Below, piece by piece: positions 13,844 to 58,289 of a stretch of 64,000 bases of DNA (positions within the stretch are counted from its first letter, which is position 1; each line of letters begins with the position of its first letter). The position numbers were made by a program, and so were the translations under genes. Where the stretch lies: the NCBI GenBank assembly GCA_016193175.1, contig JACPSR010000142.1, positions 54,332-118,331 on the forward strand, read 5' to 3'. The notes under the pieces were generated by a model. It was not told the origin of the DNA. It did no database searches and saw nothing but the letters and a program-made list of their open reading frames with translations. Source of the stretch: Candidatus Omnitrophota bacterium (GTDB taxonomy: Bacteria > Omnitrophota > Gorgyraeia > Aquiviventales > Aquiviventaceae).

Positions 13844-14005
13844 GATCCCACGCCCTGGCACCGGTAGCGCCTCAATGACCACGAGTGAATACGCGGACAC
13901 CGCAGGCTGGTTCGGCACTGCCGAGGCCGGCCAGCAGATGAGACCAACCGGAGGAGCCGGCCAGGGCCACGCGATGCGTGGCCCGTGCCAGGGCGTGGGA
14001 TGATC
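13844..14005 (+). repeat. Palindromic junction element, copy 3 (162 bp, longest)
   Basis: Arms extend to 15 bp: CCCACGCCCTGGCAC 13847-13861 and GTGCCAGGGCGTGGG 13985-13999. Hairpin GGGCCACGC-GAT-GCGTGGCCC 13964-13984. The downstream ATG at 14000 lies in the right arm. Confidence 0.85.
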
Positions 14006-14845
14006 ACGACGCCTAAGGCCACGCGGCCGCCTCACAAGGGCTCCGTGCGGGGCCATCCCATCGAGGTTCGCAAATCCGTGTTGTCCATCCTCTACAAGAG
14101 CAAGGCCTCGCACCTGGGACCCTCCATGTCGGCGGTCGAGATGTTGCTTGCGATCTACAATTCCGTGGACCTTGATGCCATCCGTGCCAAAGATGTGCTC
14201 CGGCCTCGGGTGATCATCAGTAAAGGCCATTGCGCGGCGGCGACCTACAGCGTGATGGCCCACGTCGGGCTCATGGATTTTCGGACCCTCGAGACCTACC
14301 ATCAAGACGATTCCGCGCTGGCCGGGCATGTCAGCCATGCCGTGGAGTTCGTCGAACACTCGACGGGAGCGCTCGGCCATGGGCTGCCGGTCGCGTGTGG
14401 ATGCGCCATGGGGCTTCGGGCTCGTGGTGCCCCACAGACCCCCGTCTTTGCGCTCCTGGGTGATGGAGAACTCCAAGAGGGGGCGGTGTGGGAAGCCATC
14501 ATGTTCGCCAAGCACCACCAGCTGGCCAACCTCATCCTCCTGATCGATGACAACCGGATCAGTAGCATCACCAACACCGCAGAGGTCATCAACCTGCTGC
14601 CCCTGAAGGACCGCTTCGCCGGGTTCGGGCTTCGGGTCTATGAAGTCGATGGCCATGATGTCGAAGCGATCATTGAGGCGATTGATGACATCAAGAGGAT
14701 TCGGGAAGTCAGCGTGATTATTTGCCGGACGACGAAGGGCTACGGGGTCCCCTTCGCTGAAGGCGAGCCGATCTGGCATTACCGGACCCTGAACGAGCAG
14801 GACTACCGCGCTGCGATGGCGTATCTCGAACAGGGGCAGATCTGA
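14000..14845 (+). CDS. Transketolase, N-terminal (ThDP-binding) subunit
   Basis: SKASHLGPSMSAVEMLLAIY, GALGHGLPVACG and ThDP motif LLGDGELQEGAVWEA. Start is the ATG within the repeat arm. Confidence 0.85.
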   Translation: MITTPKATRPPHKGSVRGHPIEVRKSVLSILYKSKASHLGPSMSAVEMLLAIYNSVDLDAIRAKDVLRPRVIISKGHCAAATYSVMAHVGLMDFRTLETYHQDDSALAGHVSHAVEFVEHSTGALGHGLPVACGCAMGLRARGAPQTPVFALLGDGELQEGAVWEAIMFAKHHQLANLILLIDDNRISSITNTAEVINLLPLKDRFAGFGLRVYEVDGHDVEAIIEAIDDIKRIREVSVIICRTTKGYGVPFAEGEPIWHYRTLNEQDYRAAMAYLEQGQI

Positions 14846-15762
14846 TGCGAGGCCGCATCATGAACGCCGTCTTCGCGCGGATGCAGGCTGATGAGAACGT
14901 CTTCTTCCTCACGGCCGACATGGGAATTAATTTGGTCGAGAAGATTCAACAGGTGTTTCCATCCCGGTATCTCAATGTGGGCATTGCCGAACAGAACTTG
15001 ATCGGCATCTGTGCCGGGCTGTGCAATCTGGGCTTCCGTCCGGTGGCCTATACGATCTCGCAGTTCATCAGCCATCGCTGCTATGAGCAAATTCGCAACG
15101 ACCTGAAGCTTCACGACTATCCTATTACGCTGCTGGGAACCTCTGCGGGGTTTGATAACGCTCCGCTGGGCCCGACCCACCATATCGTGGACGACTGGGG
15201 CGCGGTCCGCACCATCCCGGGGATTGACATCTACTGTCCGTCCAGCGTCAGTTATGCGGACACGCTCGTGGACAAGATCTTGGCGCAGCCTCGTCCGGCG
15301 TATGTGCGGATTCCAAAGGGAGCCTTTGAACAACCCGCCTCGCGAGACGATACCCTGTATCTCGAGGGGGCACGCGGGGGCCCCTTGCTGATCTCGTATG
15401 GGTCAACCGTACAGACGTGCTTAGCGCTTCAGGCGCGGCATGCGGAGGTATCAGTCCTGGTGTGTAATCGGTTGCGTCCACTGCAGGCCGATCTCGTGCG
15501 GGCCGCGCTGCAGCGGCATCCCAGCGCATTCGTGGTCGAGGATCATTTCCCCAGCAGCGGCCTGTACAACATGCTATGTCAGTTCTGCATGGAGCATCGC
15601 CTCGCCTGCCAGCTGAGCAGTTTGGGCCCGCGGGAGGAGTATCACCTGAAGGTCGGGGCCTCGGCAGGCTACTATCATCGGCTCTATGGTTTTGACGAAC
15701 AAGGGATCGAGCGCGCGTTGTGGGGCCAATCACATGCTCTCATTGATTCTCCCAACCTATAA
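14845..15762 (+). CDS. Transketolase, C-terminal (pyrimidine-binding) subunit
   Basis: FFLTADMG, NVGIAEQNLIGICAGL and GPTHH motifs. TGATG junction with the N-terminal subunit. Confidence 0.85.
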   Translation: MRGRIMNAVFARMQADENVFFLTADMGINLVEKIQQVFPSRYLNVGIAEQNLIGICAGLCNLGFRPVAYTISQFISHRCYEQIRNDLKLHDYPITLLGTSAGFDNAPLGPTHHIVDDWGAVRTIPGIDIYCPSSVSYADTLVDKILAQPRPAYVRIPKGAFEQPASRDDTLYLEGARGGPLLISYGSTVQTCLALQARHAEVSVLVCNRLRPLQADLVRAALQRHPSAFVVEDHFPSSGLYNMLCQFCMEHRLACQLSSLGPREEYHLKVGASAGYYHRLYGFDEQGIERALWGQSHALIDSPNL

Positions 15763-16831
15763 TCGACCCGGGTTGCTTCGCCGGGTCCTGAGGTATTACG
15801 AGGCATGCCAATTTCCGCATCGGGTGCTCGTGGCGGACTCGAGTGACGCGCCTGCGGCGGAGGCGAACCGGCAGATCGTGGAGGCCGTCTCCCGCGCCAT
15901 GCCGGTCGAGTACCGGCGGTATGATTCCGCTCTTGAGGTGCCGATGAAACTGGCGGAAGCGCTCGAAGGGATTCAGTCGACGTACGCGGTGATCGGATCG
16001 GATGACGATTTTTTTGTTCCGAGTGCACTAGAACGAGGGGTGGCGTTTCTGGAATCGCATCCCGACTACGCCCTGGCGCATGGTGAGTCGGCGTATTTCG
16101 TCTTAGAGTCTGACAGGATCGTTTCCGGCCGGTGTGTGGGGGTGGGGCGATATCTGCAACGCACGATCGATCACGCGAGCGGCTCGGAGCGATTGGCGGC
16201 GCATCTCGCGCAATACACCACCACCTTTTATTCAGTCCATCGGACGGAGCAACTGCGCAGGAATTGGCGTCGAGTGGCTGCGCTGCCTCTCGATCATTTG
16301 TTCGACGAGTTGCTCCCGTCATGCCTGTCGCTCATCGAAGGCAAGAGTCAGAAACTCGACGAACTCTACATGGTGAGGCAAATCCACTCTGCGCAAACAG
16401 CACGGACACGGGGTTCCAGAGGCCTCGGTTGGGTGATGGGTCAACGCTGGTCAGAACACTACGCACGATTTCAGGATCTGCTGGCTGAGGAGCTGGTTGG
16501 CCAGGACAGGATCACCATGGAGGCCGCGAGGGAAGTTGCCAAACAGGCGTTCCGGCCCTATGTAGCCCGATATGTGGCCAAAGAAGTGGGGAAGTCGCGT
16601 CAGTTGCACGATAGCGTCGCCATCAGGATCGGGGCGCGAGTGCGCAGGGTGGCACGAGGGATGCCTCTGCTGCGTTGGGGCTGGCACCTGGCACGCGCGA
16701 TCAGGCCGATGTCGCGCACAGCCATCTCGCTTGAGGCGTTGCTTCGCCAGACCTCGCGCTATCACGAAGGATTTATGCCGATCTATCGAGCGGTGACGGC
16801 GCAGAACGGTCACGAGGTCGGTGCGTCATGA
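15734..16831 (+). CDS. Glycosyltransferase family 2-like protein (paralog 1 of a tandem pair)
   Basis: LILPTYNRPGLLRRVLRYY N-terminus (GT-A style) and VADSSD. C-terminal SRYHEGFMPIYRAVT is shared with the next gene. Confidence 0.5.
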   Translation: MLSLILPTYNRPGLLRRVLRYYEACQFPHRVLVADSSDAPAAEANRQIVEAVSRAMPVEYRRYDSALEVPMKLAEALEGIQSTYAVIGSDDDFFVPSALERGVAFLESHPDYALAHGESAYFVLESDRIVSGRCVGVGRYLQRTIDHASGSERLAAHLAQYTTTFYSVHRTEQLRRNWRRVAALPLDHLFDELLPSCLSLIEGKSQKLDELYMVRQIHSAQTARTRGSRGLGWVMGQRWSEHYARFQDLLAEELVGQDRITMEAAREVAKQAFRPYVARYVAKEVGKSRQLHDSVAIRIGARVRRVARGMPLLRWGWHLARAIRPMSRTAISLEALLRQTSRYHEGFMPIYRAVTAQNGHEVGAS

Positions 16832-16941
16832 TCCGCCCTAGCAGTCCCGCCGAAGGCGGGGTCGCCCGACGACCACAGGATTGCAACAGCGGGTGCGACG
16901 GCTCCACCACGGGTGGAGCCCTGCCAGGGCGTGGGATGATC
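16828..16941 (+). repeat. Palindromic junction element, copy 4 (114 bp, left arm carries a 2-nt deletion)
   Basis: Left arm ATGATCCGCCCT 16828-16839 (CA missing) and right arm CAGGGCGTGGGATGATC 16925-16941. Hairpins CCCGCC-GAA-GGCGGG 16846-16860 and GGCTCCACC-ACG-GGTGGAGCC 16900-16920. Upstream stop TGA 16829-16831 lies in the left arm; downstream ATG 16936 lies in the right arm. Confidence 0.85.
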
Positions 16942-18096
16942 ACCCTGTGCGTTCCCACCTACAATCGTCCCGCGTTCATCGAGCGGTTGCTGCGCTACTA
17001 CGCAGCCACCAGCTCTCGGCACTGGATCTTCATCGGCGATTCCAGCGATCCCAATGATGCCAAGCGCACCCAGCGGGCGGTCGCGTCGTGGGGGGGGCGG
17101 CTCCAGGTGCGCTACGAGGCGTGCGCGGGCTTAAGTTCCTGTGCCGCCTTGGAACATGTCAGTCGCCTCATCATGACCCCCTATTGCGCCTTTTTAGGCG
17201 ATGACGATTTCCTCTGCACGAATGGGATCGAGCAGTGCCTGGAGTTTCTGGAGCGCCATCCCAGCTACGGGGCGGCTCATGGAAAAGGCCTCCTGTTCCA
17301 AACCGAAACCGGAGCTGCGTACGGACCGATTGGGATGGTCAGGCCGTATCCGCAGGTCGTGCTGAATGCGGATTCTGCTGCCGGGCGACTGCGAGACGTA
17401 TTGACCGCACGCGTCGGCGGGCTGCTGTATTCGGTGCATCGGACTCACACGTGGCGGGCCATGTTCGCGGGGATCGGGCGGCTCTCAGGCACGACGAATA
17501 CGAACATCTTCAAAGATGAGCTCATCGCGGTTTGCCTCTCCGCCATTCGCAACACGGTGCAGGAACTCGACTGTTTGTACCTGATTCGTCACACACATGA
17601 GGCGATCTATAAGTACCCCACTATCTACGATTGGGTGACAGATCCGATGTGGTTTCCGTCGTTCCAGGCATTCCGTGATCGCCTGGTCACGGAACTGATG
17701 GAGCAGGACCGTCTGCATGAGCCAGACGCGCAGGCCGTCTTCAAGGATGTGTTCTGGTCCTTTCTGGCTCATGTCCTCATGAACGGTTGGCAGCGATCCC
17801 GGCAACCAGCGCGAGTGAAACCAGTGAGTCGGCTGCAGGTTCTGGCCAAGCGCGTGCCGGGCCTACAGCGCGGGTGGCAAAAGGTGTTGGCCATTCGGCA
17901 GCGGTGGCAAGACGAACTGTCGCTGCCGGCGCTGCTTCACCCCTCCTCACCGTACCATGACGATTTCATGCCGATTTATGAGGCGGTGACCCACGCGCCC
18001 GCGGACGCACTCGTGGCGGTGGCGTCCGAGCGCCACCTGGTGTCCAGCAAGGGCGCGTTGGATGCTGGTGCGGTGCTGAGAGAGCCCCATGGCTGA
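16936..18096 (+). CDS. Glycosyltransferase family 2-like protein (paralog 2 of a tandem pair)
   Basis: MITLCVPTYNRPAFIERLLRYY, IGDSSD and C-terminal SPYHDDFMPIYEAVT parallel the preceding gene. The open frame extends to the ATG at 16828 through the repeat. Confidence 0.5.
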   Translation: MITLCVPTYNRPAFIERLLRYYAATSSRHWIFIGDSSDPNDAKRTQRAVASWGGRLQVRYEACAGLSSCAALEHVSRLIMTPYCAFLGDDDFLCTNGIEQCLEFLERHPSYGAAHGKGLLFQTETGAAYGPIGMVRPYPQVVLNADSAAGRLRDVLTARVGGLLYSVHRTHTWRAMFAGIGRLSGTTNTNIFKDELIAVCLSAIRNTVQELDCLYLIRHTHEAIYKYPTIYDWVTDPMWFPSFQAFRDRLVTELMEQDRLHEPDAQAVFKDVFWSFLAHVLMNGWQRSRQPARVKPVSRLQVLAKRVPGLQRGWQKVLAIRQRWQDELSLPALLHPSSPYHDDFMPIYEAVTHAPADALVAVASERHLVSSKGALDAGAVLREPHG

Positions 18097-18271
18097 ACGG
18101 GATCAGACGCGGGTGTTGATTGTTGGGTGCCGACAAGTGGGCAGTCGGCATCTGCAGGCCGTCGCGACGTTGCCACACGTTGCTGAGATTGACGTCATCG
18201 ATCCGCGCGCTGCGGCGACGCTGACGAGGCACACAGAATCGGTGTTTGGCTACGAAGGAGGAACTGGATGA
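18089..18271 (+). pseudogene. N-terminal remnant (about 40 aa) of a Rossmann oxidoreductase, paralogous to the 5' end of CDS 21227-22231
   Basis: MAERDQTRVLIVGCRQVGSRHLQAVATLPHVAEIDVIDPR versus MAESDNARVLIVGCGELGSRHLQAVATLPDVAEIDVVDSR. Both have the same ATGGCTGA junction. The 60-codon ORF then diverges and stops. Confidence 0.65.
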
Positions 18272-18981
18272 CGCTCACAGGACTCGTGCAACGGGGATGT
18301 CGCACGTTTGGCTTCGAGGTGCGCCGTCTCCACGGCGGGGTCGTACCCCAGCCGCCGCCCATGATTGCGTACTGGCTCGACCGGGTCGAATATGTCCGGT
18401 GCCGCATGGAGCAGATTGCCCATCTCGATGGCGCTATCGTTGAATGCGGGGTCTATCGGGGTCGTACCCTGTCGATGTTCGCCTATTGGATGCAGCGGCC
18501 GGCGCACGCCCAGCGCCACCTCTTTGGATTCGATTCGTTCCGAGGGTTCCCCGCACCGACGCCGAACGATGGAGGAAACCGGGAGGCTCACGAGGGGAAC
18601 TATGGAGACACCTCCCCAGCGATCGTGCGCGCGTTCCTTGAAGCCTCAGGCATTCCTCGGGAATTCATGGAGACGCGGTGTCACCTGATCCCTGGCTTTT
18701 TCAGCGAGACCGTGCCCAATTGGACGCCGCAGCCTATTGCCCTGCTGCATGTGGACTGCGATCTCTATGAATCCACCATGCAGGTGCTCACCCTCCTTGC
18801 GCCGCAGGTCGTCCCAGGAGGCGTCATCCTGTTTGATGAGTACGAAGAGCCTCGGTATCCTGGGGCCAGGCAGGCGATCGAGGAGTATTTCGGTGAGGAG
18901 GTCTCGGCAATCCAAACGGACGCCTTCCGGAACAAGCACTACCTCGTCAAGGTAGGTGTGCCGGCTCAGAGGAGCGCCTAG
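18268..18981 (+). CDS. TylF/MycF-family class I SAM-dependent O-methyltransferase
   Basis: LLHVDCDLYESTMQVLTLLAPQVVPGGVILFDEY is characteristic of the macrocin-O-methyltransferase family. Confidence 0.7.
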   Translation: MTLTGLVQRGCRTFGFEVRRLHGGVVPQPPPMIAYWLDRVEYVRCRMEQIAHLDGAIVECGVYRGRTLSMFAYWMQRPAHAQRHLFGFDSFRGFPAPTPNDGGNREAHEGNYGDTSPAIVRAFLEASGIPREFMETRCHLIPGFFSETVPNWTPQPIALLHVDCDLYESTMQVLTLLAPQVVPGGVILFDEYEEPRYPGARQAIEEYFGEEVSAIQTDAFRNKHYLVKVGVPAQRSA

Positions 18982-20076
18982 GTGTCAGGATCGCCATGGC
19001 GTGGTGAGATGACGGCTGTGCTGACCGAGTATGCACAGGCCCATGTGGTGCGGGAGCCGCGTCTTGTCGAGCGGCTGTTAGTCATCGGGGGGCTGCCCGG
19101 GTGCGGGAAGGGCCTGTTGGCGCCGATCCTCGGCACCTTGGCCCGGATCGAGATCCAGAAGTACAACGAGGCCATCGAGCATGTCTGTGGACTGCGCCTC
19201 CTCGGCAAGCTGGATGAGGAGACGGCCACGGTGATGATCCGGATGCTCACGGACTTGGATCTCTATTACCTCAGCATGTCCAGAGAAGTTAATCTGAGAT
19301 TCGGGGACATCACATCCGTGTGGAAGAATGCCGGAACCCTCCGATATCTCCGAAGGCTGTACCAGCCCGGGGATGCGGCGGCGGTCGAGAGGATTCGACG
19401 CGAACACCCCATCCTCCAGATTCTCCTGCACAGCGGTCTGGCGATCAGCCCGCCGCTGTTTCGGGCCTTGGGAAGCGCCGTGCGGTTGCTCGATCTGGTC
19501 CGGCATCCCCTCCACCTCATTCACGTGTCGTGGCGGGCGTACATCGAACGCTATGGCATCGATGTCCGAGATTTCACGCTCTGGTGTGCGTACGAGGGCC
19601 GGGCGGTGCCGTATTTTGCGCAGGGATGGGAGGACCTCTACCTCAGATCGAACCCCATGGATCGCGTGATTTTTTCGATCGAGCGCTTGCTGGAGATGGG
19701 TCGCCAGGCGATAGAGAGCTTGCCTGATGATCAGAAGGCACAGGTGTTGATTGTCCCATTCGAGCGCTTTGTGCTGGATCCCTGGCCGTACCTGGAGCAA
19801 ATCGAGGGGTGGCTGGGCACACGGCGGACCTCCCTGACACGCAGGACCATGAAGCGGCAGCGCGTGCCGAGGGATCGGGTGACCGCGACGGTTGACCGTC
19901 CGATCGACAAGCTGTATCGCTGGAAGTCTGCGGGGAAGGCCACAGGTGCAGGCGGTGAGTTGGCCCAGCTGCGGCGCGCGGTGGCGACGGAGGCCTCCGC
20001 GGAGGGCCTCAAGGTACTCGACCGACTGTGTGCCGACTATGAGGCGACCTACCTCGACGGCGGCGTGAGATGGTGA
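18982..20076 (+). CDS. P-loop (GxPGxGKG) protein of unknown function, kinase- or sulfotransferase-like
   Basis: VIGGLPGCGKGLL resembles an NMP-kinase-type Walker A motif. GTG start at 18982 or ATG at 19009. The C-terminus LCADYEATYLDGGVRW is duplicated as a remnant at 23326-23413. Confidence 0.4.
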   Translation: MSGSPWRGEMTAVLTEYAQAHVVREPRLVERLLVIGGLPGCGKGLLAPILGTLARIEIQKYNEAIEHVCGLRLLGKLDEETATVMIRMLTDLDLYYLSMSREVNLRFGDITSVWKNAGTLRYLRRLYQPGDAAAVERIRREHPILQILLHSGLAISPPLFRALGSAVRLLDLVRHPLHLIHVSWRAYIERYGIDVRDFTLWCAYEGRAVPYFAQGWEDLYLRSNPMDRVIFSIERLLEMGRQAIESLPDDQKAQVLIVPFERFVLDPWPYLEQIEGWLGTRRTSLTRRTMKRQRVPRDRVTATVDRPIDKLYRWKSAGKATGAGGELAQLRRAVATEASAEGLKVLDRLCADYEATYLDGGVRW

Positions 20077-20342
20077 CCGGCGTCGGTCTCAGGGGGCTTG
20101 CGACGTCCACGCGACGTGGAGGGATTGGCACGCTGCGGGTTGCGGTTCTCGGGACGGGAAGTGCCGGCCTGATGCCTCTGCGTGCGCTGCGTCAGCTCGA
20201 GGGAGTTGAGCCAGTCGCGGTGCCAAGGCGTCTTGAATGCATCGAGGCGTTGGCTGCGATGGGCATGCGCACATCGCGAGATCTGCGTGAGGCAGCCGCA
20301 ACGGGCGCCATCCGCCGTGAGGGGCAATCCCATGACTCCTGA
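20070..20342 (+). pseudogene. N-terminal remnant (about 70 aa) of a Gfo/Idh/MocA oxidoreductase, paralogous to the 5' end of CDS 23407-24423
   Basis: RVAVLGTGSAGLMPLRALRQLEGVEPVAVPRR...RDLREAAATGA versus RVAVVGTGSAGMRHLDVLRQLDGVESIAVPKR...RDLREVVASGA. Both have the same ATGGTGA stop/start junction. Similarity ends near 20312 and the ORF stops at 20342. Confidence 0.65.
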
Positions 20343-21234
20343 GGCAGCCGAAGTTCGTATCGCCGCACCATCCATCGACGCTGGAGAACTCTATGATGTG
20401 GCGGCGGCTGGTGGGGAGTTCTGGTTCTACCAAGATCTCCGAGACAAGAGCCCTCGGTGGTATGATGAATGCTATTTCAACCCAGACTGCGTGTTGCTGT
20501 TTCCGGAGACCCGGCAGGTCTACTGGTTTGATCTCGACCACGTCTCGGTGGGGGCGGAGGCGACCGGTACCCGGCGGCACGTCTTGGGGAACCTCTGGAG
20601 GAAAAAATTCGCCTTCGCCTCCGATGGTAATCGACTGAGTATCCTGCCCTGTGCAGTGACAGGCCTGTGGAGGGGCAGGCCCACGGCGATGCGGCCGCAG
20701 GAGACAGAAGGCATCGCCTACGTGGTCGGCGATCGCTATCGGAGAGTATGCGAGATCAGGGCCGATGGCACGATGGATCCTCAAGAGCGACGCGAGCTCG
20801 ATGAGGCCTGGCGTCAGCACCGGAAGTTGAAGGTGGGGGTACCACTGGGCCGGAGCGTGCTCATCTATGGGATCCGGCTGGCGTTCCAGCAAAAGGGGGT
20901 CTACAGTTTTGCTTCGAAAACCGTGGTCATCCCATCCCCGCAGGCGCGGGCGTTCTCATGGGAGCAGGCATCACTTGGGAACATCTGCGTGGGATCGGAT
21001 GGCTCCTGTTCCATCTACCGTGAACAGACCTCGCGGCCGGGTCTCCTGCAGGTCCTCGCAACCTATGCTCCCACGGTGCTGCAACGGGCTAGCGGCATGT
21101 TGAACCGATCCCCGGATGGGTTCAAGGAATGGGTGCGGTCGCTGGCGCGGCCGATGCTTCGGTGTCTGCTCACATTTGAAGTCGACCATGCGCGGTGCCC
21201 GTTCACGATCTTTGTGAGGGAGGCCGATGGCTGA
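20332..21234 (+). CDS. Hypothetical protein (300 aa), no domain recognised
   Basis: Long ORF with balanced, protein-like composition. Its stop lies in an ATGGCTGA junction with the next gene. It sits between the two remnant-bearing junctions. Confidence 0.5.
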   Translation: MTPEAAEVRIAAPSIDAGELYDVAAAGGEFWFYQDLRDKSPRWYDECYFNPDCVLLFPETRQVYWFDLDHVSVGAEATGTRRHVLGNLWRKKFAFASDGNRLSILPCAVTGLWRGRPTAMRPQETEGIAYVVGDRYRRVCEIRADGTMDPQERRELDEAWRQHRKLKVGVPLGRSVLIYGIRLAFQQKGVYSFASKTVVIPSPQARAFSWEQASLGNICVGSDGSCSIYREQTSRPGLLQVLATYAPTVLQRASGMLNRSPDGFKEWVRSLARPMLRCLLTFEVDHARCPFTIFVREADG

Positions 21235-22231
21235 GTCGGACAACGCTCGGGTGCTGATCGTCGGGTGCGGCGAGCTTGGCAGTCGTCATCTGCAGGCCGT
21301 CGCGACGCTCCCAGACGTGGCGGAGATTGACGTCGTGGACTCACGCACCGAGGCGTTGAGGCAGGGACAGGAACGCCTCGTTGAGGTCACGGAGCGCAAC
21401 CCCCAAACGCGGTATCGTTGGCTATCCTCGTTGGAGGAGGCTGCTGGTGGGGGTCAACTGTGCATTGTGGCTACCCAGGCGGAAGGGCGCTGTCAGCTCG
21501 TGCGGGATGTGGTTGAGCGGCTAGGGTACGGAGGGTTTCTTTTGGAGAAGATCGTCGGCCAGTCCATCGAGGAAATTGAAGGTCTCGAAACGTTCTTGGG
21601 GGTGCGGGGGTGTACCGCCTGGGTCAACCTGAAAACACGGACGTACCCCATCTATCAGCACATCAAGCAGCGGCTGGAGCCTGGCGAGCCCATCCAATTG
21701 ACGTCGCTCGGCGGTAATCACGGTCTGGCCACGAACGGCGTGCATACGGCGGATTTGTTTGCGTTCTTCGATGGAACCGAGGAGATCGAGTTGGTTGGCT
21801 GCCGCGTTGATCCGATCCTGCATCCGTCAAAGCGGGGCGAGCGTCTCTTTGACCTCAGCGGAACCCTCCAAGGGGCCACGAAGAACGGGAGCCATTTTAT
21901 GCTGTCGTATGCGAAGGACCACAAGCAGTCGGAGCAGATCACGATTGCGGGTCGGCGCTATCGGTGCATCGTCGATCAGAGCGAGAGGAAGCGGTGGGTG
22001 GTCGAAAGCCACGTGGACACGGGTTGGGTGTGGCAGCCGGTCCCATCGACAGAGAACCTTCGGGTCAGCCTGATGAGCCGGCAATTTGTCCGGGAGATCC
22101 TCCATACCGGAACCTGCAGCCTGCCGACGCTCAAGGAGTCCTTGGTGGCGCACCGGTTCATCTTCGGGGCCATTCAGCCGGTGTTCAGTCAGCTGATGGG
22201 ACATGAGGTTGAGTTATGTCCGGTGACGTGA
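21227..22231 (+). CDS. Rossmann-fold oxidoreductase, Gfo/Idh/MocA-like
   Basis: RVLIVGCGELGSRHLQA N-terminal dinucleotide fold and FLLEKIVG (a variant of the EKP motif). Confidence 0.55.
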   Translation: MAESDNARVLIVGCGELGSRHLQAVATLPDVAEIDVVDSRTEALRQGQERLVEVTERNPQTRYRWLSSLEEAAGGGQLCIVATQAEGRCQLVRDVVERLGYGGFLLEKIVGQSIEEIEGLETFLGVRGCTAWVNLKTRTYPIYQHIKQRLEPGEPIQLTSLGGNHGLATNGVHTADLFAFFDGTEEIELVGCRVDPILHPSKRGERLFDLSGTLQGATKNGSHFMLSYAKDHKQSEQITIAGRRYRCIVDQSERKRWVVESHVDTGWVWQPVPSTENLRVSLMSRQFVREILHTGTCSLPTLKESLVAHRFIFGAIQPVFSQLMGHEVELCPVT

Positions 22232-23280
22232 CGGGGTCGGCGCTTGAGGCGCGCGCGCCGTGCTCTGCGTCGGAGCTTGCAGCCGCCATCGCCCGGGCGG
22301 ATGTGGCGGGTGCCGTTGCGACCGTGGTCGGAATCGGCACGATGGGCAAACACTTCGTGAGCGCGCTCCGGGCGCTCGGGGTGAAGCGTGTGCGCCTCTG
22401 CGCTCGTTCGCCAGGACCCTTGGAGTCGTTCCGAGCGTTCGAGGGGTTCGAAACGTTCGCCGGCGGCATTGAGCGGTTCGTCGGCCGACCGGCTCCTGGC
22501 GAGCTGGCGATTATCGCGACCCCGACGGCCTTGCTCATCCCGGCCGCCCGGCGGCTGGCGTCGCTGGGCTTCCGTCGGCTGCTGATTGAGAAACCTGTCT
22601 CGCTCTGGCCGGCGGAGATTGAGCGGCTGGCCGAGGAGCTTGAGGGCGAGGGGGTCGAGGCGTCCTGCGCCTACAACCGCGTCGCGTATCCCTCGTGTCA
22701 AGAAGTGCGGGCTCGTGTCGCCCGCGAGGGCGGGGCCACCTCGTGTACCTATACGTTCACCGAGCGGATCAAGCCGGATTGGCCGCAGACGTTTTCCGCG
22801 GAAGAGCTGGCGCGGTGGGGCATCGCCAACAGCTTGCATGTGATGAGCATGGCGCATGGGGTGATCGGCTGGCCCGCGTCCTGGTCGGCCCATCGTTCCG
22901 GCAGCCTGCCGTGGCACCCGACCGGAGCCGTCTTTATGGGGTCCGGCGTCTCGGATCGTGGGATCCCCTTTGGGTATCATGCGGATTGGGGTTCCACTGG
23001 CCGCTGGTCCGTCGAGGTCCATACCGCGGCCGCGTCGTATCGGTTGTGTCCCCTCGAACAAGTGTTTCGCCGGACATCGACGACGAGCGGCTGGACAGAC
23101 ATTCCGGTCGCGGCCTTCGCGCCGCAGGTGAAGGCGGGAATCACGGAGCAGGTGGCGGCGATGTTGTGTGAGGAGATCGGGGAGCGGGTGCCGCTGGTGT
23201 CGCTGCGCGCGGCCGCCTCGCTGTCGAGATACGCTGAAGCGGTCTTCGGCTATGACTCGGCGGAGACAGAGGCGCCATGA
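22216..23280 (+). CDS. Rossmann-fold oxidoreductase, Gfo/Idh/MocA-like
   Basis: VVGIGTMGKHFVSAL, IATPTALLIPAARRL and LLIEKPVS (EKP motif). Confidence 0.55.
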   Translation: MSGDVTGSALEARAPCSASELAAAIARADVAGAVATVVGIGTMGKHFVSALRALGVKRVRLCARSPGPLESFRAFEGFETFAGGIERFVGRPAPGELAIIATPTALLIPAARRLASLGFRRLLIEKPVSLWPAEIERLAEELEGEGVEASCAYNRVAYPSCQEVRARVAREGGATSCTYTFTERIKPDWPQTFSAEELARWGIANSLHVMSMAHGVIGWPASWSAHRSGSLPWHPTGAVFMGSGVSDRGIPFGYHADWGSTGRWSVEVHTAAASYRLCPLEQVFRRTSTTSGWTDIPVAAFAPQVKAGITEQVAAMLCEEIGERVPLVSLRAAASLSRYAEAVFGYDSAETEAP

Positions 23281-23325
23281 TCGTCGCAGTCGATCGCGCG
23301 GATCGATGAGGATGGAGACGCCAGT

Positions 23326-23413
23326 GCCAACCGTGTCATCCTTCGTTGAGACAGCGAGGCGGCTGTGCGCAGCCTATGAGGCGATGTACCTCGACGGTGG
23401 CGTGGCATGGTGA
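23326..23413 (+). pseudogene. C-terminal remnant of a paralog of CDS 18982-20076
   Basis: ARRLCAAYEAMYLDGGVAW* versus LDRLCADYEATYLDGGVRW*. DNA similarity runs from 23363, matching 20026 onward. It lies in otherwise non-coding 23281-23406. Confidence 0.55.
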
Positions 23414-24423
23414 TGGGCAGAGTGGCGACGCGGGTCGGGGTGCGGCGGGTGGCCGTCGTCGGAACGGGAAGCGCTGGCATGAGGCATCTGGATGTCCTAC
23501 GTCAACTCGACGGCGTTGAGTCGATCGCCGTGCCCAAGCGTCCCGAGCGTGCCGCAGAACTGGCCGGAGCTGGCCAGGCGGCGTTGCGCGATTTGCGCGA
23601 GGTGGTGGCGTCCGGTGCCACGCGCGCGATCATCGCGACGGATACCGGCTGTCACCTTGAAGATGGGCTTGCAGCGCTGGGGCAGGGGTTGGACCTGCTC
23701 ATCGAAAAGCCGCTGGCGACCAACGCCACCGACGCGGCACGGCTTCGCGCGGCGGCTGTCCACGCCGGGCGAAGACTATTCGTTGGTTGCGTCTTACGGT
23801 TTTCGGAATCCCTCAACGCCTTCCACTCGTTGCTGAAGCAGATCGGCCGGGTGCACTCGGTGCGCATCGAATGCCAGTCATATCTGCCGGACTGGCGGCC
23901 CGCCCGCCCCTATCAGGAGTCCTATGTGGCGCGTCGCGTAGAAGGCGGGGTCTTGTTAGATCTCATTCATGAGATCGACTACGCGGGGTGGATCTTCGGG
24001 TGGCCCAAGGCGGTTCAGGCGAGGCTACGCAACGTGGGGCGCTTGAGCATCGCGGAAGAGGAAACCGTTGATCTGCTGTGGGAAACGCCCATGGCCGGCT
24101 GCGTCTCGATGAGCTTGGATTATCTGACCCGCCCCCCACGCCGCGTGACGCGGGCCTGCGGGGAACGGGGGACCGTGGAGTGGGATGGCATCGCGGGGAC
24201 GGCGAGCTTGGCCCTTGCGGGACAAGCGCCGATGGTCGTCCGCTCTTCACAGACACGCGAGGAGATGTTCCTCGCCCAGGTGCGCGCGTTCCTCGAAGCG
24301 TGTGGTGACGGGCGCGATCCGCGACTGGCCACAGCTGAGGATGGCGTGAGGGCTCTGGCGGTCTGTGACGCAGCACGCCGGTCCTCTCAGAGCCGGCAGG
24401 AGGAGCCGGTGGTGATCCTATGA
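23407..24423 (+). CDS. Gfo/Idh/MocA family oxidoreductase (PtmF-like position in a nonulosonic acid cluster)
   Basis: RVAVVGTGSAGMRHL, LLIEKPLA (EKP motif) and a C-terminal alpha/beta domain. Directly upstream of neuA. Confidence 0.75.
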   Translation: MVMGRVATRVGVRRVAVVGTGSAGMRHLDVLRQLDGVESIAVPKRPERAAELAGAGQAALRDLREVVASGATRAIIATDTGCHLEDGLAALGQGLDLLIEKPLATNATDAARLRAAAVHAGRRLFVGCVLRFSESLNAFHSLLKQIGRVHSVRIECQSYLPDWRPARPYQESYVARRVEGGVLLDLIHEIDYAGWIFGWPKAVQARLRNVGRLSIAEEETVDLLWETPMAGCVSMSLDYLTRPPRRVTRACGERGTVEWDGIAGTASLALAGQAPMVVRSSQTREEMFLAQVRAFLEACGDGRDPRLATAEDGVRALAVCDAARRSSQSRQEEPVVIL

Positions 24424-25172
24424 GCGTCGGCAGGCGGTTGCTGGCGGTGATTCCCGCGAGGGGAGGATCGCGCGGGCTGCCGGGCAAGAACATCCGACTG
24501 TTTGCGGGGCTGCCCTTGATCGGCCATGCGGTTCGCTTTGCGCAAATGTGTCTTGAGATCACGCGAAGCGTCGTCTCCACGGATGACGAGGAGATTGCCC
24601 GAGTGGCGCGGAACTGTGGCGCGGAGGTCCCGTTCATCCGACCATCAGCGCTCTCGCAGGATGACACACCGCTGTGGCCGGTGGTTCGCCATGCGCTGGC
24701 ATGGGTCGAGGAGCACGAGGGAGAGGCCTACGACCTCGTGTTGCTCTTGGATCCCACCTCACCAGCGAGGGAGCCCTTGGATGTGAGCCAGGCGATGGAG
24801 CGGCTGCGGCACGCCCCAGAAGCCGACGGCATCATCGGGGTATCGCAGCCGGACTTCAACCCCATCTGGCACTGCGTGGTCGAACGTGACGGATGGATGG
24901 CCCATCTGATTGATAGCGGCAGGCAATTTCATCGTCGGCAGGACGTTCCCACGGTGTACCGCATCAACGGCTCGCTCTACCTGTGGCGGGCCGCTTTCGT
25001 CCGGGACCAAGCCGCTGCGTGGGAAGCGGGAAGGCACCTGATGTACGAGATTCCGGAGTCTCGGGCGATGTCGATCGACACGATCGAGGAGTTTGAACAG
25101 GCGGAGTTGTTGGTCACAGGGGGCCTCATCCATCTGCCGTGGGTGCAGGAGGACGAAAGCAGAGCAAGATGA
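24420..25172 (+). CDS. neuA: N-acylneuraminate (nonulosonate) cytidylyltransferase
   Basis: LAVIPARGGSRGLPGKNIRLFAGLPLIGHAV is the CMP-NeuAc synthetase family signature. Confidence 0.85.
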   Translation: MSVGRRLLAVIPARGGSRGLPGKNIRLFAGLPLIGHAVRFAQMCLEITRSVVSTDDEEIARVARNCGAEVPFIRPSALSQDDTPLWPVVRHALAWVEEHEGEAYDLVLLLDPTSPAREPLDVSQAMERLRHAPEADGIIGVSQPDFNPIWHCVVERDGWMAHLIDSGRQFHRRQDVPTVYRINGSLYLWRAAFVRDQAAAWEAGRHLMYEIPESRAMSIDTIEEFEQAELLVTGGLIHLPWVQEDESRAR

Positions 25173-26002
25173 CCAAGGGTCAGGTGACGGCAACGGCGAC
25201 GCGAACCCTCGCGGATCTCATGCGACTGTCAGGACGCAAGGCGCTGATTACTGGAGGGACCGGGCATGTGGGGGTGGCGGTCGGCGAGGCGCTGGTTGAG
25301 TTGGGCGCGACCGTGGCGGTGCTCGATGTCGATGCCGCGAGATGCCAGGAGCGCGCGGACGCCTTGGGCCGGATGCGAGCGCGCAGCGCGGTGGCGATTC
25401 CTTGCGACCTTCGTGACGAGCAAGCGACCCGGGGCGCCATCCACCGGTCGATTGAATGGCTGGGGGGTTTGGACATCCTCGTCCATTGCGCGGCCTATGT
25501 GGGGACGGACCAGCTCCCCGGCTGGGTGGTACCGTTTGAGCAGCAGACGGTGGACGCGTGGGATGCGGCCATGCGGGTCAATCTGACCTCCGCCTTCATT
25601 ATGGTGCAGGAAGCCCGCACGATGCTGGACGCCTCCGGTACCGGCTCGGTGATCCTCATTGGCTCGACGTACGGACTGGTCGGCCCTGATCCGCGCCTCT
25701 ACGAGGGTACGACGATGGGGACTCCCGCAGGTTACGCGGCTTCCAAGGGCGGCGTGCTGCAACTCACGCGGTATCTCTCGACCGTCCTGGCGCCACGCGT
25801 GCGCGTGAATGCCATCACCCCGGGAGGGATCTGGCGCAATCAGCCGGAGGCGTTCCACCAGCGCTATGTCAGCCGCACGCCGCTGGGCCGCATGGCTTCC
25901 GAGGAAGATCTGAAAGGGGCGGTCGCGTATCTGGCCAGCGACCTCTCGGCCTACGTGACAGGGCAGAATCTCGTCGTCGATGGAGGATGGACGGCATGGT
26001 GA
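25169..26002 (+). CDS. Short-chain dehydrogenase/reductase (PtmA-like)
   Basis: ALITGGTGHVGVAVG, YAASKGG catalytic Y-x3-K, and C-terminal VTGQNLVVDGGWTAW. Confidence 0.8.
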   Translation: MTKGQVTATATRTLADLMRLSGRKALITGGTGHVGVAVGEALVELGATVAVLDVDAARCQERADALGRMRARSAVAIPCDLRDEQATRGAIHRSIEWLGGLDILVHCAAYVGTDQLPGWVVPFEQQTVDAWDAAMRVNLTSAFIMVQEARTMLDASGTGSVILIGSTYGLVGPDPRLYEGTTMGTPAGYAASKGGVLQLTRYLSTVLAPRVRVNAITPGGIWRNQPEAFHQRYVSRTPLGRMASEEDLKGAVAYLASDLSAYVTGQNLVVDGGWTAW

Positions 26003-27039
26003 TCGCCGAGCGATCCGTCGGTCCGGGGCAGCCGTGCCTCATTATCGCGGAGGCCGGGGTCAATCATAACGGCGACATGGCGCTCGCGCGGCGCTTGATC
26101 GACGCCGCCGCCGAGGCCGGGGCTGACGCGGTCAAGTTCCAGACCTTCAAGGCCGAACGGTTAGCGAGCGCATCGGCTCCCAAGGCCGCTTATCAATGGC
26201 AGGCCACCGATCGCTGGGAATCGCAGCGCGAGATGCTGCGTCGATTGGAGCTGTCGGAATCGGCTCATCGAGGCCTCATGGTCTCTTGCCAGCAGCGCGG
26301 CATCCTGTTTCTCTCATCTGCTTTTGAGGAGGAAAGCGCCGATCTGTTGGAGCGGTTGGGCGTGTGCGCCTTCAAGATTCCATCAGGAGAACTGACGAAT
26401 CTGCGGTTCTTGGAGCATGTCGCTCAGAAGGGCAAGCCGATGATTGTGTCGACCGGGATGTCCACCCTCTCGGAGGTTGAGCAGGCGGTGCAGATCATTC
26501 GACGAGCCAGGAACGATCAACTCATCCTGCTCCATTGTGTCAGCGACTACCCGGCCAATCCATCGGATGCAAATCTGCGCGCCATGCATACGATGGCTGA
26601 GGCGTTCAACGTGCCAGTGGGGTATTCCGATCACACCCCGGGTGTCGATGTCGCCTTAGCCGCCGTGGCCTTAGGGGCGTGTGTCATCGAAAAGCATTTC
26701 ACGTTGGATCGGGCGCTTCCGGGACCGGATCATCGCGCTTCACTCGAGCCCAATGAGTTGCGTCAACTGGTTGAAGGTATTCGGAGGGTCGAAGCTGCGC
26801 TGGGACATGGGCGCAAGGAACCGGCTCAGCGCGAAGCCCCGACCGCCGCGGTGGCGCGCAAAAGTCTCGTGGCCGCCAGGGATATTCCGGCTGGGAGTCT
26901 CCTGACCGAAACACTCATTGTGGCCAAGCGTCCCGGGACCGGTTTACCGCCAGCCCTCTTGCCTCAACTGGTTGGACGAAAGACCGTCCACGATATTCCT
27001 GCCGGCGCGCTCTTGACCCTCGACATGGTGGCTTCATGA
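25987..27039 (+). CDS. neuB: N-acetylneuraminate/legionaminate synthase family (NeuB) with C-terminal SAF domain
   Basis: PCLIIAEAGVNHNGDMALARRLIDAAAEAGADAVKFQTF and GYSDHTPG. An alternative start at 25996 gives an ATGGTGA overlap. Confidence 0.9.
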   Translation: MDGMVIAERSVGPGQPCLIIAEAGVNHNGDMALARRLIDAAAEAGADAVKFQTFKAERLASASAPKAAYQWQATDRWESQREMLRRLELSESAHRGLMVSCQQRGILFLSSAFEEESADLLERLGVCAFKIPSGELTNLRFLEHVAQKGKPMIVSTGMSTLSEVEQAVQIIRRARNDQLILLHCVSDYPANPSDANLRAMHTMAEAFNVPVGYSDHTPGVDVALAAVALGACVIEKHFTLDRALPGPDHRASLEPNELRQLVEGIRRVEAALGHGRKEPAQREAPTAAVARKSLVAARDIPAGSLLTETLIVAKRPGTGLPPALLPQLVGRKTVHDIPAGALLTLDMVAS

Positions 27040-35889: not shown

Positions 35890-36002
35890 TCCCACGCCCT
35901 AGCTGGGCTCCGCCTAAAGGCGGAGCCGCGAAACGGTGCCCCGTGTTTCTGTCATTGATGTTTCGCCCCACCAATAGGCGGGGCAGCCAGGGCGTGGGAT
36001 GA
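35886..36002 (+). repeat. Palindromic junction element, copy 5 (117 bp)
   Basis: Left arm ATGATCCCACGCCCT 35886-35900 and right arm CAGGGCGTGGGATGA 35988-36002. Hairpins GGCTCCGCC-TAAA-GGCGGAGCC 35906-35927 and CCCCACC-AATA-GGCGGGG 35966-35983. Inner stem CGAAAC/GTTTCG 35929-35934/35960-35965. Upstream TGA 35887-35889 and downstream ATG 35999 lie in the arms. Confidence 0.9.
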
Positions 36003-42607: not shown

Positions 42608-42719
42608 TCCCACGCCCTCGCAGCCTCGCCTTCGGCGAGGTCGCCAACGAGACGAAATGTCAAGAGGGGCTGGCGACGGCTCCGCCTACGGCGGAGCCCT
42701 GCCAGGGCGTGGGATGATG
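42605..42719 (+). repeat. Palindromic junction element, copy 6 (115 bp)
   Basis: Left arm TGATCCCACGCCCT 42605-42618 and right arm CAGGGCGTGGGATGATG 42703-42719. Hairpins CCTCGCC-TTC-GGCGAGG 42624-42640 and GGCTCCGCC-TAC-GGCGGAGCC 42678-42698. Inner stem GTCGCCA/TGGCGAC 42640-42646/42671-42677. Confidence 0.9.
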
Positions 42720-55941: not shown

Positions 55942-56780
55942 TGGTGAACGAGCGTGTTCAGGTGAAACGAGAAAAGCGGATGGATGTGGCAGATCCCCTG
56001 GCTGTGGCGGAACGGTTGCGTCGCCGCTTGAAGCAGCGGGCGCTCACCTTCGGGGCGTGGATCTCGATCGGGCATCCGGAGATCGCCAGCATCTTCGCCG
56101 GCGCGCGGGGGGACTTCGTGGGGTTCGACCTGGAGCATACGACGATCGATTTTGCGACAGCCCAGCAGATCATCCGGGCCTGCCACGAGTTTGGCCGCGC
56201 GTGCCTGCCACGCATTGGCCCGGGGAATCTGGAGCAGCTCAGTCGCCTGCTCGATGCCGGGGCCGACGGCGTGGTCGTCCCGCAGGTGCAGGGTCGTGAT
56301 GACATCGAGCGCGTCGTCGATGCGCTGCGGTACCCGCCGGCGGGCCGGCGTAGCTTCGGGGTCGCCGCGGCCCATCAGTACGGGCGCGCGTTTGACGCGT
56401 ATGTGCGGTCGGCGAACGCCTCCCTGTCGCTCATCGTGCAGGTCGAAACGATTGGGGCGGTGGAGCAGGTCAAGCCGATTGTGGCGCATCCGGATGTGGA
56501 TGGCGTGATGGTCGGACCCTATGACCTTTCTGGGTCCCTTGGCATTCCAGGGAAGCTGTCCGATCCCCGCGTCACCGAGGCAGCCGGGCGCGTGGTGACG
56601 GCGTGCGCCTCGGCCGGCAAGAGTTGCGGCACGCACCTCGTGCGCCCAAGCCTTGAGGGGATCCGGCGGCATCTCGCCGACGGGTTCACGTTTCTCGTCC
56701 TGGGCTCCGATGTCTTCAACCTGGCGCAGCGAAGCGAAGAGCTCGATGCGATGATCGAGGCGTGCCATGCCGACCGTTGA
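55941..56780 (+). CDS. HpcH/HpaI-family class II (pyruvate-dependent) aldolase
   Basis: TFGAWISIGHPEIASIFAGARGDFVGFDLEHT and VQVETIGAVEQV blocks are typical of 2-keto-3-deoxy-acid aldolases. Confidence 0.8.
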   Translation: MVNERVQVKREKRMDVADPLAVAERLRRRLKQRALTFGAWISIGHPEIASIFAGARGDFVGFDLEHTTIDFATAQQIIRACHEFGRACLPRIGPGNLEQLSRLLDAGADGVVVPQVQGRDDIERVVDALRYPPAGRRSFGVAAAHQYGRAFDAYVRSANASLSLIVQVETIGAVEQVKPIVAHPDVDGVMVGPYDLSGSLGIPGKLSDPRVTEAAGRVVTACASAGKSCGTHLVRPSLEGIRRHLADGFTFLVLGSDVFNLAQRSEELDAMIEACHADR

Positions 56781-57531
56781 GGAACGCTTCAATCTGCGCG
56801 GAAAAGTCGCCGCGATCATTGGGGGCGCGGGGTACCTGTGTTCCACGCTGGCGGAGGCGATGGCGGAAGCCGGCATATCGGTCTTCATCCTCGACGTGGC
56901 TGAGCCGGTGCGGGGCAACCCGGTACCGACGGGTACCATGCTGCCGTGCCTTCGCTGCGATGTCACCTCGAAGGATGATCTCATTCGCTGTCGGGACCAG
57001 ATTCAGCGAGAGCACGGCCGGATCGATATCCTGCTCAACGGCGCCGGGACAAACGCCCCCACCCCATTCTTCGACATCTCGCTCGAGGAATTCGACCGCA
57101 TCATGCGAGTGAACCTGCTGGGAACCCTCCTAAGTTGCCAAGTGTTCGGCGAAGTTATGGTGCGCCAGCGTGCGGGGAGCATCATCAATTTCACCTCTGT
57201 ATCCAAAGACCCCCCCCTTTCGAAAGCGTTCGTCTACTCCACGGCCAAGGCGGGCGTGGCCAATCTGACGCAGAACCTGGCGCGGGAGTGGGCGCCGTTC
57301 AACGTGCGGGTGAACGCGCTGCGGCCAGGGTTCTTCCCAACCGCCTGGAGCATGCGGCACTTCATTGACGAGCCGCGCAAGGCCGCCATCCTGAACCACA
57401 CTCCCATGGGTCGGTTTGGTCAGCCCGAGGAGCTCATCGGCGCGGTGCTGTGGCTGGCCTCCGATGCGGCCAGCTTCGTGACTGGTTCCATCGTGACGGT
57501 GGATGGCGGTTTCACGGCGATGACCATTTAA
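56767..57531 (+). CDS. Short-chain dehydrogenase/reductase
   Basis: AAIIGGAGYLCSTLA, YSTAKAG catalytic motif and C-terminal VTGSIVTVDGGFTA. Confidence 0.85.
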   Translation: MPTVEERFNLRGKVAAIIGGAGYLCSTLAEAMAEAGISVFILDVAEPVRGNPVPTGTMLPCLRCDVTSKDDLIRCRDQIQREHGRIDILLNGAGTNAPTPFFDISLEEFDRIMRVNLLGTLLSCQVFGEVMVRQRAGSIINFTSVSKDPPLSKAFVYSTAKAGVANLTQNLAREWAPFNVRVNALRPGFFPTAWSMRHFIDEPRKAAILNHTPMGRFGQPEELIGAVLWLASDAASFVTGSIVTVDGGFTAMTI

Positions 57532-58289
57532 TGAGCTTGCGACGTCAGGGTCGTGTCGTGGCGATCACGGGAGGCACACGGGGGATTGGTCGCTCGGTCG
57601 CAGAGCTGTTCCATGACCGTGGTGAAGCCGTTGCGGTCTGCGGCCGTTCAGACCCAGAGCCTGCGCTGCCACCCGAGATTCTGTTCGGCCGTGTCGACGT
57701 GCGCGATCGCGAGGCTCTGGACGGTTTCGTTGGGAAGGTTGTGGAGCAGTGGGGAGCGCCGAATGTGTTCGTCAATTGTGCCGGCGTCTCGCGGTGGCGG
57801 GCCGTTGAGGAGATCGATGAGGCCTTTGTGCGGGAGGTGCTGGACACGATTGTCCGTGGGACGCTGTGGGGATGTGCGGCGGCTGCGAAGGTGATGACAG
57901 AGGGCGGCTGCATCGTGAATATCTCGAGCCTCGCTGGCAAGCGAGGCAGCGCGAATAACAGCGTCTACTGCGCCGCCAAGTTCGCGGTCAACGGCATCAC
58001 CCAGGCGTTGGCGAAGGAGCTCGGTCCGAGGGGCATTCGCGTCAATGCGGTGTGTCCGGCCTATGTGCCGACACCTCAGGTCCTTGCCGCGTTAGCGGAG
58101 CCGGTCTCGCCAGCCCGTGGTCAAGATGTGGAGCAGTACCTGGAGCAATTTGCGGCGACGCAGACTGCGCTGGGGCGGCTCTCCGACGCGCACGAGATCG
58201 CCGAGGCCGTGTACTTCCTGGCCAGTCCAGCAGCGTCTGCGATCACCGGACAGTGTCTCAATGTGGACTGCGGAACGCTCCCTCAGTGA
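57531..58289 (+). CDS. Short-chain dehydrogenase/reductase
   Basis: VAITGGTRGIGRSV, YCAAKFA catalytic motif and ITGQCLNVDCG. TAATG junction. Confidence 0.85.
   Translation: MSLRRQGRVVAITGGTRGIGRSVAELFHDRGEAVAVCGRSDPEPALPPEILFGRVDVRDREALDGFVGKVVEQWGAPNVFVNCAGVSRWRAVEEIDEAFVREVLDTIVRGTLWGCAAAAKVMTEGGCIVNISSLAGKRGSANNSVYCAAKFAVNGITQALAKELGPRGIRVNAVCPAYVPTPQVLAALAEPVSPARGQDVEQYLEQFAATQTALGRLSDAHEIAEAVYFLASPAASAITGQCLNVDCGTLPQ

Follow-up and report, generated by a model that had tools for sequence, protein, structure and literature searches.

A probable 5′ remnant of a second, long-diverged Gfo/Idh/MocA gene in a nonulosonic-acid operon of an Omnitrophota bacterium

The locus

The window analysed here is a stretch of 64,000 nucleotides (nt) from Candidatus Omnitrophota bacterium (GenBank assembly GCA_016193175.1, contig JACPSR010000142.1, positions 54,332 to 118,331 of the forward strand), and all positions given below refer to it. 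The element under study is a 90-codon open reading frame (ORF) at 20070–20342, directly behind a P-loop gene. Its codons 1–82 (20070–20315) correspond to the N-terminus of the Gfo/Idh/MocA oxidoreductase gene that lies intact at 23407–24423 and stem from a second, diverged copy of it, and its codons 83–90, up to the stop at 20340–20342, are unrelated, foreign sequence. The ORF is most probably a non-enzymatic 5′ stub, that is, a pseudogene fragment, of a long-diverged gene copy in a module of four genes that has been doubled and pruned. The four genes will be called X, Y, P and Z and their remnants X′, Y′, P′′ and Z′, so that the stub at 20070–20342 is Z′.

The two copies of the module are found on the same strand, the plus strand, head to tail, and will be referred to as copy A (18077–20315) and copy B (21215–24423). 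Of each of the four genes, the window contains exactly one intact version. Copy A, directly preceded by a glycosyltransferase (GT) gene (16828/16936–18096), contains the intact P (18982–20076), a sulfotransferase-like P-loop gene of an uncharacterised family whose alignment shows an invariant GxxGxGK motif. An intact TylF-family O-methyltransferase gene (MT, 18268–18981; Pfam PF05711 TylF, E 4e-28) is located between the Y′ stub and P. Copy B contains the other three intact genes. X (21227–22231) encodes a Rossmann-type protein of a conserved family, is 64% identical at the amino acid (aa) level to X of two related loci (L008 and L009) and lies upstream of Y as it does there. Y (22216–23280) is a distant Gfo/Idh/MocA-like gene (PF01408, E 1.5e-6), with 69–70% identity to Y of the same two loci and 80% to the Y C-terminus of a third, the metagenomic contig L010. 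Z (23407–24423) is a Gfo/Idh/MocA oxidoreductase gene matching PF01408, PF02894 and PF22725, 74% identical to Z of L010 and 60% to Z of L008/L009. Downstream of Z, the Pfam and NCBIfam names are NeuA-like, SDR, NeuB and NeuC-NeuD. The two copies are separated by hyp300 (20332–21234), an accessory gene that is intact, belongs to a small conserved family and overlaps the start of X with its stop.

Genes overlap or abut throughout this region, and no promoter-like site was found in 15.5–25.5 kb, from which the region reads as one long operon. The terminator-like matches in the same interval were three and weak, about five being expected from shuffled sequence, and a promoter or terminator at the joints, considered as a candidate, was discarded when none was found there. 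Rfam returned no structured RNA match over 15–45 kb.

Homology between the two P/Z junctions

The first-pass annotation of the sequence had described a DNA parallel between about 20026–20312 and 23363–23622, covering the last codons of the P-loop gene, the ATGGTGA junction and the beginning of a Rossmann N-terminus. Both blastn and tblastn bear this out. In a blastn self-comparison, 20023–20232 matched 23360–23542 with 67.1% identity over 210 columns (E 4e-15 when 13 kb were compared, 9e-14 across the whole window); the in-frame gaps, 27 nt net, fall in the variable N-terminal part. A sensitive blastn of 14000–27000 against itself gave two internal matches only. Pairwise local alignment of the stub junction with the Z junction reached a score of 82, compared with 21.1 +/- 2.4 and a maximum of 32 in 200 shuffles. 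Chance similarity is ruled out by these E-values and shuffles. At the protein level, residues 10–73 of the 338-aa Z protein aligned by tblastn with 20124–20315 (56% over 64 aa, E 2e-13), and the final 22 codons of P (20008–20073) aligned with 23345–23410 (64%, E 3e-4). The ATGGTGA stop/start overlap is present at both sites, P/Z′ at 20070 and P′′/Z at 23407. The identity to the start of Z, earlier counted as about 54%, was measured as 56–57%.

The homology to Z stops at codon 82 of the stub (20313–20315), in agreement with the limit at 20312 read from the letters. The sequence immediately to the right of this breakpoint (20316–20331) contains a Shine–Dalgarno-like GAGGGG at 20319–20324, 7 nt before the ATG of hyp300 at 20332. 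Because this motif lies directly right of the breakpoint, the Shine–Dalgarno sequence would have arrived together with hyp300. The stub runs on to its TGA at 20340–20342 and thus overlaps the start of hyp300, as had been noticed at first reading; that start is backed by the N-termini of eight homologues and by an independent gene call on contigs of the Logan assemblies. On the other side of hyp300, the homology between the two copies starts only about 12–20 nt before the start codon of X, and the hyp300 segment of about 900 nt exactly fills the gap from where copy A ends to where copy B begins.

Three complementary remnants

The Z′ stub had been described as a duplicate of the 5′ end of 23407–24423. 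That a truncated Gfo/Idh/MocA N-terminus lies behind the P-loop gene, linked to it by ATGGTGA, holds good; its description as a mere duplicate is too narrow. The parallel is reciprocal: at 20070 P is intact and Z is the remnant, and at 23345–23413 an intact Z follows the remnant tail of P. A further stub is found at 18089–18271. The stretches recognisable by homology, X′::Y′ (18089–18271), Z′ (20070–20315) and the P′′ tail (23345–23410), are complementary.

The first remnant, X′::Y′ (18089–18271), is an in-frame fusion of 60 codons that joins the first 43 codons of X′ to the last 17–20 or so of Y′. Its start overlaps the GT stop and its stop overlaps the methyltransferase start (ATGA, 18268). 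By blastn, 18077–18217 is 76% identical to 21215–21355 over 141 nt (E 3e-23), and by tblastn the X′ part is 74% identical at the aa level to X (21227–22231), while the C-terminal part matches the C-terminus of Y (E 8e-5) and that of Y in L010 (E 4e-5). The DNA alignment places the switch from X′ to Y′ at a CGCGC microhomology. The third remnant, P′′ of copy B (23277–23413), begins at the canonical ATGA Y/P junction at 23277, which opens an 11-codon ORF (MIVAVDRADR and stop) whose TGA overlaps a second ATG at 23306, again as ATGA. The 35-aa ORF opened there carries the P-loop tail in its last 22 or so codons (23345–23410) and ends in the ATGGTGA overlap with Z. By tblastn, this tail is 64% identical to the P tail of copy A and 73% to that of L010. 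The 64-nt spacer in front of it (23281–23344) has no significant similarity to the body of the P gene, since 17 of 500 shuffles reach its score, and an unbroken chain of overlapping frames through this remnant has a chance probability of roughly 0.1.

Reproducibility of the joints in independent assemblies

The P-loop protein is identical to the hypothetical protein HYY59_07375, encoded on a 192-kb contig of a Candidatus Omnitrophica metagenome-assembled genome (MAG). An apparent duplication in such a genome could come from a misjoin, in which the assembler had combined the cluster versions of two strains, and the sample series does include a relative, at strain or species level, whose P gene is 80% identical (L010). 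Nevertheless, seven Logan contigs, each from a different sequencing run (SRR12113390 to SRR12113432), are 100% identical to the window, without gaps; six of the seven cross the P/Z′/hyp300 joint, and two of them, L001 and L003, additionally cross the Y/P′′/Z joint. Further, the repeats are 67–76% identical over 140–210 nt, which is too diverged to fool an assembler. As the seven contigs were assembled independently, the layout is not an assembly artefact, and the chance that a chimera explains it is negligible.

The module in related genomes

The window's proteins were used to map 60 genomic and several metagenomic loci. The order X-Y-(0–3 genes)-P-(0–4 genes)-Z-NeuA-SDR-NeuB recurs in Omnitrophota, Acidobacteriota/Terriglobia, Elusimicrobiota, Planctomycetota and others. 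In L010, the closest relative, which comes from the same sample series and has the 80% identical P, the Y C-terminus, P and a full-length Z are contiguous, with the same ATGGTGA junction as in the window. P is likewise followed directly by Z in two other loci (L018 and L023), and the order X-Y-MT-P is found in a Terriglobia MAG (L026). In none of the relatives' loci compared is P followed by a Z stub or Z preceded by a P tail. Because the module is normally single, the layout of the window is derived and represents a lineage-specific doubling.

Neither Pfam nor NCBIfam places X, P or hyp300 convincingly, and for Y there is no more than a weak Pfam match to Gfo/Idh/MocA. The recurrence of X, Y and P beside NeuA and NeuB in several phyla marks them as an uncharacterised and widespread accessory module of nonulosonic-acid biosynthesis. 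With respect to L010, the ends of this contig (nt 1–19 and the last 20 or so) are Nextera adapter (GATGTGTATAAGAGACAG), so that the terminal residues of its Z translation (…LLSLIHI) are an artefact.

Divergence of the copies and constraint on the stub

Divergence statistics were obtained on the 61 gap-free codons shared by the stub, the window's Z and Z of L010, and so small a sample gives them a wide error. The stub is 65% identical in nt to the window's Z and 72% to that of L010, the two intact genes being 68% identical to each other. The changes unique to one of the three sequences number 25 nt in the stub, 31 in the intact Z and 19 in Z of L010, a near-star pattern in which the branch of the stub is not accelerated. 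When 15 Z N-termini were arranged by neighbour joining, the stub fell into one group with the intact Z of the window and that of L010, next to the latter. The ratio of nonsynonymous to synonymous substitutions (dN/dS, Nei–Gojobori) is 0.23 between the stub and Z, 0.31 between the stub and L010, 0.31 between Z and L010, and 0.19–0.42 in other intact pairs; dS between the stub and Z is about 1.3. The stub keeps 17 of the 19 family columns that are at least 85% conserved, compared with 17–19 in intact genes, and the two residues lost are a near-invariant His, changed to Pro, and an Arg, changed to Cys. The X′ part behaves in a similar way: it is 76% identical in nt to X and 72% to X of L008, X and X of L008 being 70% identical, and it has lost one invariant glycine, the second of its GxGxxG motif (VGCG to VGCR). 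The GC content at third codon positions (GC3) of the two stubs is 0.61 and 0.66, and that of every intact gene checked is 0.68–0.83. The GC and GC3 of the genes of both copies fall within the range of the window and are thus uninformative about a foreign origin.

These values bear on a fresh in-situ duplication, by which the junction between P tail and Z 5′ end (23345–23625) would have been copied behind the P-loop gene by tandem duplication or slippage and would have been decaying since. The two stretches are indeed collinear, lie 3.3 kb from each other on the same strand and have ATGGTGA in common, and the larger copies, X′-Y′-MT-P-Z′ and X-Y-P′′-Z, follow each other head to tail on one strand as recent tandem copies do. 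Recent copies should, however, be closest to each other, and Z′ and Z are not, the stub being no closer to the window's own Z than to Z of L010. An nt identity of only 65–67% and the dS reached are hard to accommodate as well. A fragment truncated at birth is expected to have a dN/dS moving toward 1 and a longer branch; because the dN/dS of the stub and its number of unique changes resemble those of intact genes, the data argue against a copy of 23407–24423 that was truncated when it arose. Such a duplication also leaves unexplained that copy A has an intact P and copy B its tail, and that an X′::Y′ stub exists. A fresh duplication is thus very unlikely, and the earlier statement that the 5′ end of 23407–24423 had been duplicated is right about the homology to Z but has to give way to a separate, diverged copy. 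The divergence values suggest that the copies of the module separated about as long ago as different species of the group, that Z′ was a working gene for most of its history, and that its truncation is recent relative to that divergence.

Coding capacity of the stub

A conserved family of about 90 aa matching 20070–20342 over its full length would have refuted the first reading; none exists in the collections searched, and such a family was rejected by both of the large protein searches. A word-indexed search of 5.8 billion clusters with the stub returned only the stub itself, on nine contigs, all of them Logan assemblies. An exhaustive phmmer search against 1.84 billion representative proteins returned seven other matches (E 8e-8 to 7e-4), lying within query residues 2–81 and mostly within 12–81; none of these seven reached residues 82–90. 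They include Z-type proteins of full length (330 and 378 aa), short pieces that go on like a normal Z and are apparently cut by contig ends, and one weak match within a 622-aa protein. A protein of 116 aa from another metagenome (P0124) has a Z-type N-terminus of about 50 residues followed by unrelated sequence, and it may be an independent truncated or fused remnant of Z.

Comparison with the Gfo/Idh/MocA oxidoreductases (PF01408 plus PF02894/PF22725) shows what the stub has kept. It is 56–67% identical to the N-termini of intact members in the same type of cluster, and its dinucleotide-binding motif of the GxGxxG type (VAVLGTGSAG, containing GTGSAG) lines up with VAVVGTGSAG in Z and with 13 further members of the family. 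In contrast to those enzymes, it covers only about the first 60 of the 120 positions of the NAD-binding (Rossmann) domain, ending in the middle of the fold. It stops at codon 90 and lacks the EKP motif, which in Z (LIEKPLA) falls past residue 95, and the C-terminal domain (PF02894/PF22725, residues 145–334 of Z) is wholly absent. The homologues of Z in 15 loci are about 320–420 aa long, all far longer than the stub. Pfam gave no match for 20070–20342 at E<0.01, whereas intact Z matches PF01408 at residues 14–127. With half a Rossmann domain and neither the EKP motif nor the C-terminal domain, the stub cannot be an enzyme.

A role other than catalysis could still have kept the stubs under selection, either as a small Rossmann-fragment protein or as a coupling bridge that would lead ribosomes from P to hyp300. 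The three stubs are all open, and their ends overlap their neighbours (ATGGTGA at 20070; ATG 20332/TGA 20340; ATGA at 18268, 23277 and 23306); the X′::Y′ fusion is in frame; the stub has no excess of nonsynonymous change; and overlapping genes form a chain through the entire operon. Internal deletions, however, retain such junctions automatically, so that selection on the stubs is not needed, and hyp300 has its own Shine–Dalgarno sequence right of the breakpoint. No conserved family of such length turned up anywhere in the searches, the stub ends within the Rossmann fold with two near-invariant residues changed, and the GC3 of the stubs lies below that of the intact genes. A functional small ORF is thus considered unlikely. 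A related idea, given a slim chance here, is that an operon overlapping throughout and translationally coupled would tolerate only those rearrangements that spare every stop/start junction. It extends the argument to all mini-ORFs of the region (60, 90, 10 and 35 codons), which would be maintained as coupling bridges to the methyltransferase gene, hyp300 and Z, with the overlapping junctions (ATGA, ATGGTGA) acting as preferred seams for the swapping of cassettes in nonulosonic-acid clusters. The weak hint cited for such seams is a resemblance between the 5′ end of the methyltransferase gene and that of P in L010. The first eight or so codons of the former (18268–18290, ATGACGCTCACAGGACTCGTGCA, MTLTGLVQ) match the P start of L010 (positions 170–192 of that contig, ATGACGCTCGTTGACGCCGTGCA, MTLVDAVQ) at 17 of 23 nt. 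This hints that the methyltransferase cassette may have been inserted just inside an old P start, although the match is short and could be due to chance.

A proposed route of joining and pruning

The arrangement is best accounted for if two versions of the module met and were reduced to one set. A cluster of the type GT-X′-Y′-MT-P-Z′ would have been joined to a cluster of the type hyp300-X-Y-P′′-Z-NeuA, one joint being illegitimate and lying within Z′ at codon 82. The joining could have been a recombination with DNA from a related lineage, or it could go back to an old duplication in which both copies long remained functional. Two internal deletions would then have removed the redundant X′-Y′ and P′′, so that each gene was left intact once. 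These deletions would have been internal to a gene or a gene pair and would have kept the stop/start overlaps and the ribosome-binding sites of the downstream genes, which lie within the 3′ ends of the genes before them. Because internal deletions spare the junctions, small stubs with open frames remain instead of clean gaps. As for expression, the Z′ stub is probably still translated, judging from its conserved ATGGTGA junction; the predicted product would be a non-functional half Rossmann domain, and any residual role would lie in carrying ribosomes to hyp300.

Several points weigh against this account. The stub shows almost no decay: its 82 codons contain no frameshift or stop, its dN/dS resembles that of intact genes and it has lost only two conserved residues, and these data would fit a very young pseudogene as well as residual constraint, between which they cannot separate. 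The dN/dS values and the three-way tree rest on only 61 gap-free codons, with the wide error mentioned above. The joining may have been a horizontal transfer or an ancient duplication, and may have taken either direction. No genome was found with an intact cluster of the copy A type or the copy B type closer than L010, and L010 is about equally related to the two copies, so that it does not indicate which of them was the resident one.

Accessory genes and other features of the window

The P-loop protein has 109 homologues of 340–390 aa, a few of them with a weak match to PF13469 (Sulfotransfer_3), and it has itself no match in Pfam, NCBIfam or the PDB. Its start is likelier ATG 19009 than GTG 18982: the former is preceded by the Shine–Dalgarno sequence GGAGAGG, corresponds to the NCBI model of 355 aa and is the Met from which the homologues align. 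In the protein collections searched, no relative of P closer than 82% was found, nor any relative of the stub. The protein encoded by hyp300 has eight homologues of about 300 aa, with 37–54% identity and 47 invariant columns. Elsewhere, the gene is found in nonulosonic-acid clusters, beside genes for a PglD-like acetyltransferase, a methyltransferase and HisF/HisH-like proteins. Two other interpretations of this gene were discarded. It is not a diverged copy of the GT that precedes X elsewhere, as there is no similarity and hyp300 has a conserved family of its own, including a C-terminal VRE. Its extension to GTG 20182 or its fusion to the stub by a frameshift finds no support in the N-termini of the homologues.

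Paralogy is also found outside the module. The adjacent GT-like genes 15686–16831 and 16828–18096 share 33% identity, and L008 and L009 have this pair conserved as well. Near 56.8–58.5 kb (56764–58503) there is another SDR/SDR/NeuA-like set, 27–43% identical to 24420–26002, and the window therefore holds more than one module of the nonulosonic-acid type.

Palindromic intergenic elements of roughly 105–150 nt occur at 13847–13999, at about 16830–16935, at 35891–35998 (inverted) and at 42609–42713. They have terminal inverted repeats (CCCACGCCCTGGCAG) and two internal GC-rich hairpins, and 16834–16940 is 77% identical by blastn to 42613–42718. The fold energy of the element is −60.6 kcal/mol (z −3.2), and the terminal-repeat motif has 20 matches where about five are expected. 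The elements have no match in Rfam and none of them lies at the breakpoints of the remnants. They look like miniature inverted-repeat transposable elements (MITE) or repetitive extragenic palindromes (REP). The first 36 codons of the 422-aa GT ORF (16828–16936) consist of this palindromic repeat, and the true start of the GT gene is probably ATG 16936 (MITLCVPTYNRP...), in agreement with a 386-aa gene call on Logan contigs.

Known parallels and significance

Reciprocal (complementary) loss after the duplication of a block of genes, and homology-facilitated illegitimate recombination during natural transformation, may be kindred processes. The window shares with them two collinear copies in which each gene is kept once, and one joint in a homologous context with the other, illegitimate joint lying within a gene. 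It differs in that its copies are 65–76% identical, so that the doubled state would have to be old or xenologous.

Surface-glycan operons offer a second parallel. In Salmonella groups B1 and D1, remnants of wzy persist between wbaV and wbaU, and group D2 is a recombinant of D1 and E (Reeves et al., 2013; PMC3715488). The likeness lies in truncated pathway genes that persist in such an operon after gain, replacement and serial deletion, as footprints of its assembly from diverged versions. In contrast to the Salmonella O-antigen remnants, which concern one superseded gene, the window has three complementary stubs of a four-gene module, its joints are without insertion sequence (IS) or H-repeat elements, and it belongs to an uncultured Omnitrophota lineage and to a nonulosonic-acid branch of unknown product.

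In conclusion, the feature is a genuine but ordinary footprint of recombination and deletion, of a kind familiar from polysaccharide clusters, and not a new system. Taken together, the stubs would form a fossil record in which two diverged X-Y-P-Z modules were joined and pruned to one working set, with the methyltransferase gene and hyp300 gained. In genome annotation, 18089–18271, 20070–20342 and 23277–23413 should not be called proteins. Beyond this, the locus illustrates how internal deletions can preserve translational-coupling junctions, and it helps to define a widespread module, uncharacterised in all four of its proteins (X, Y, P and Z), that accompanies NeuA and NeuB in several phyla.

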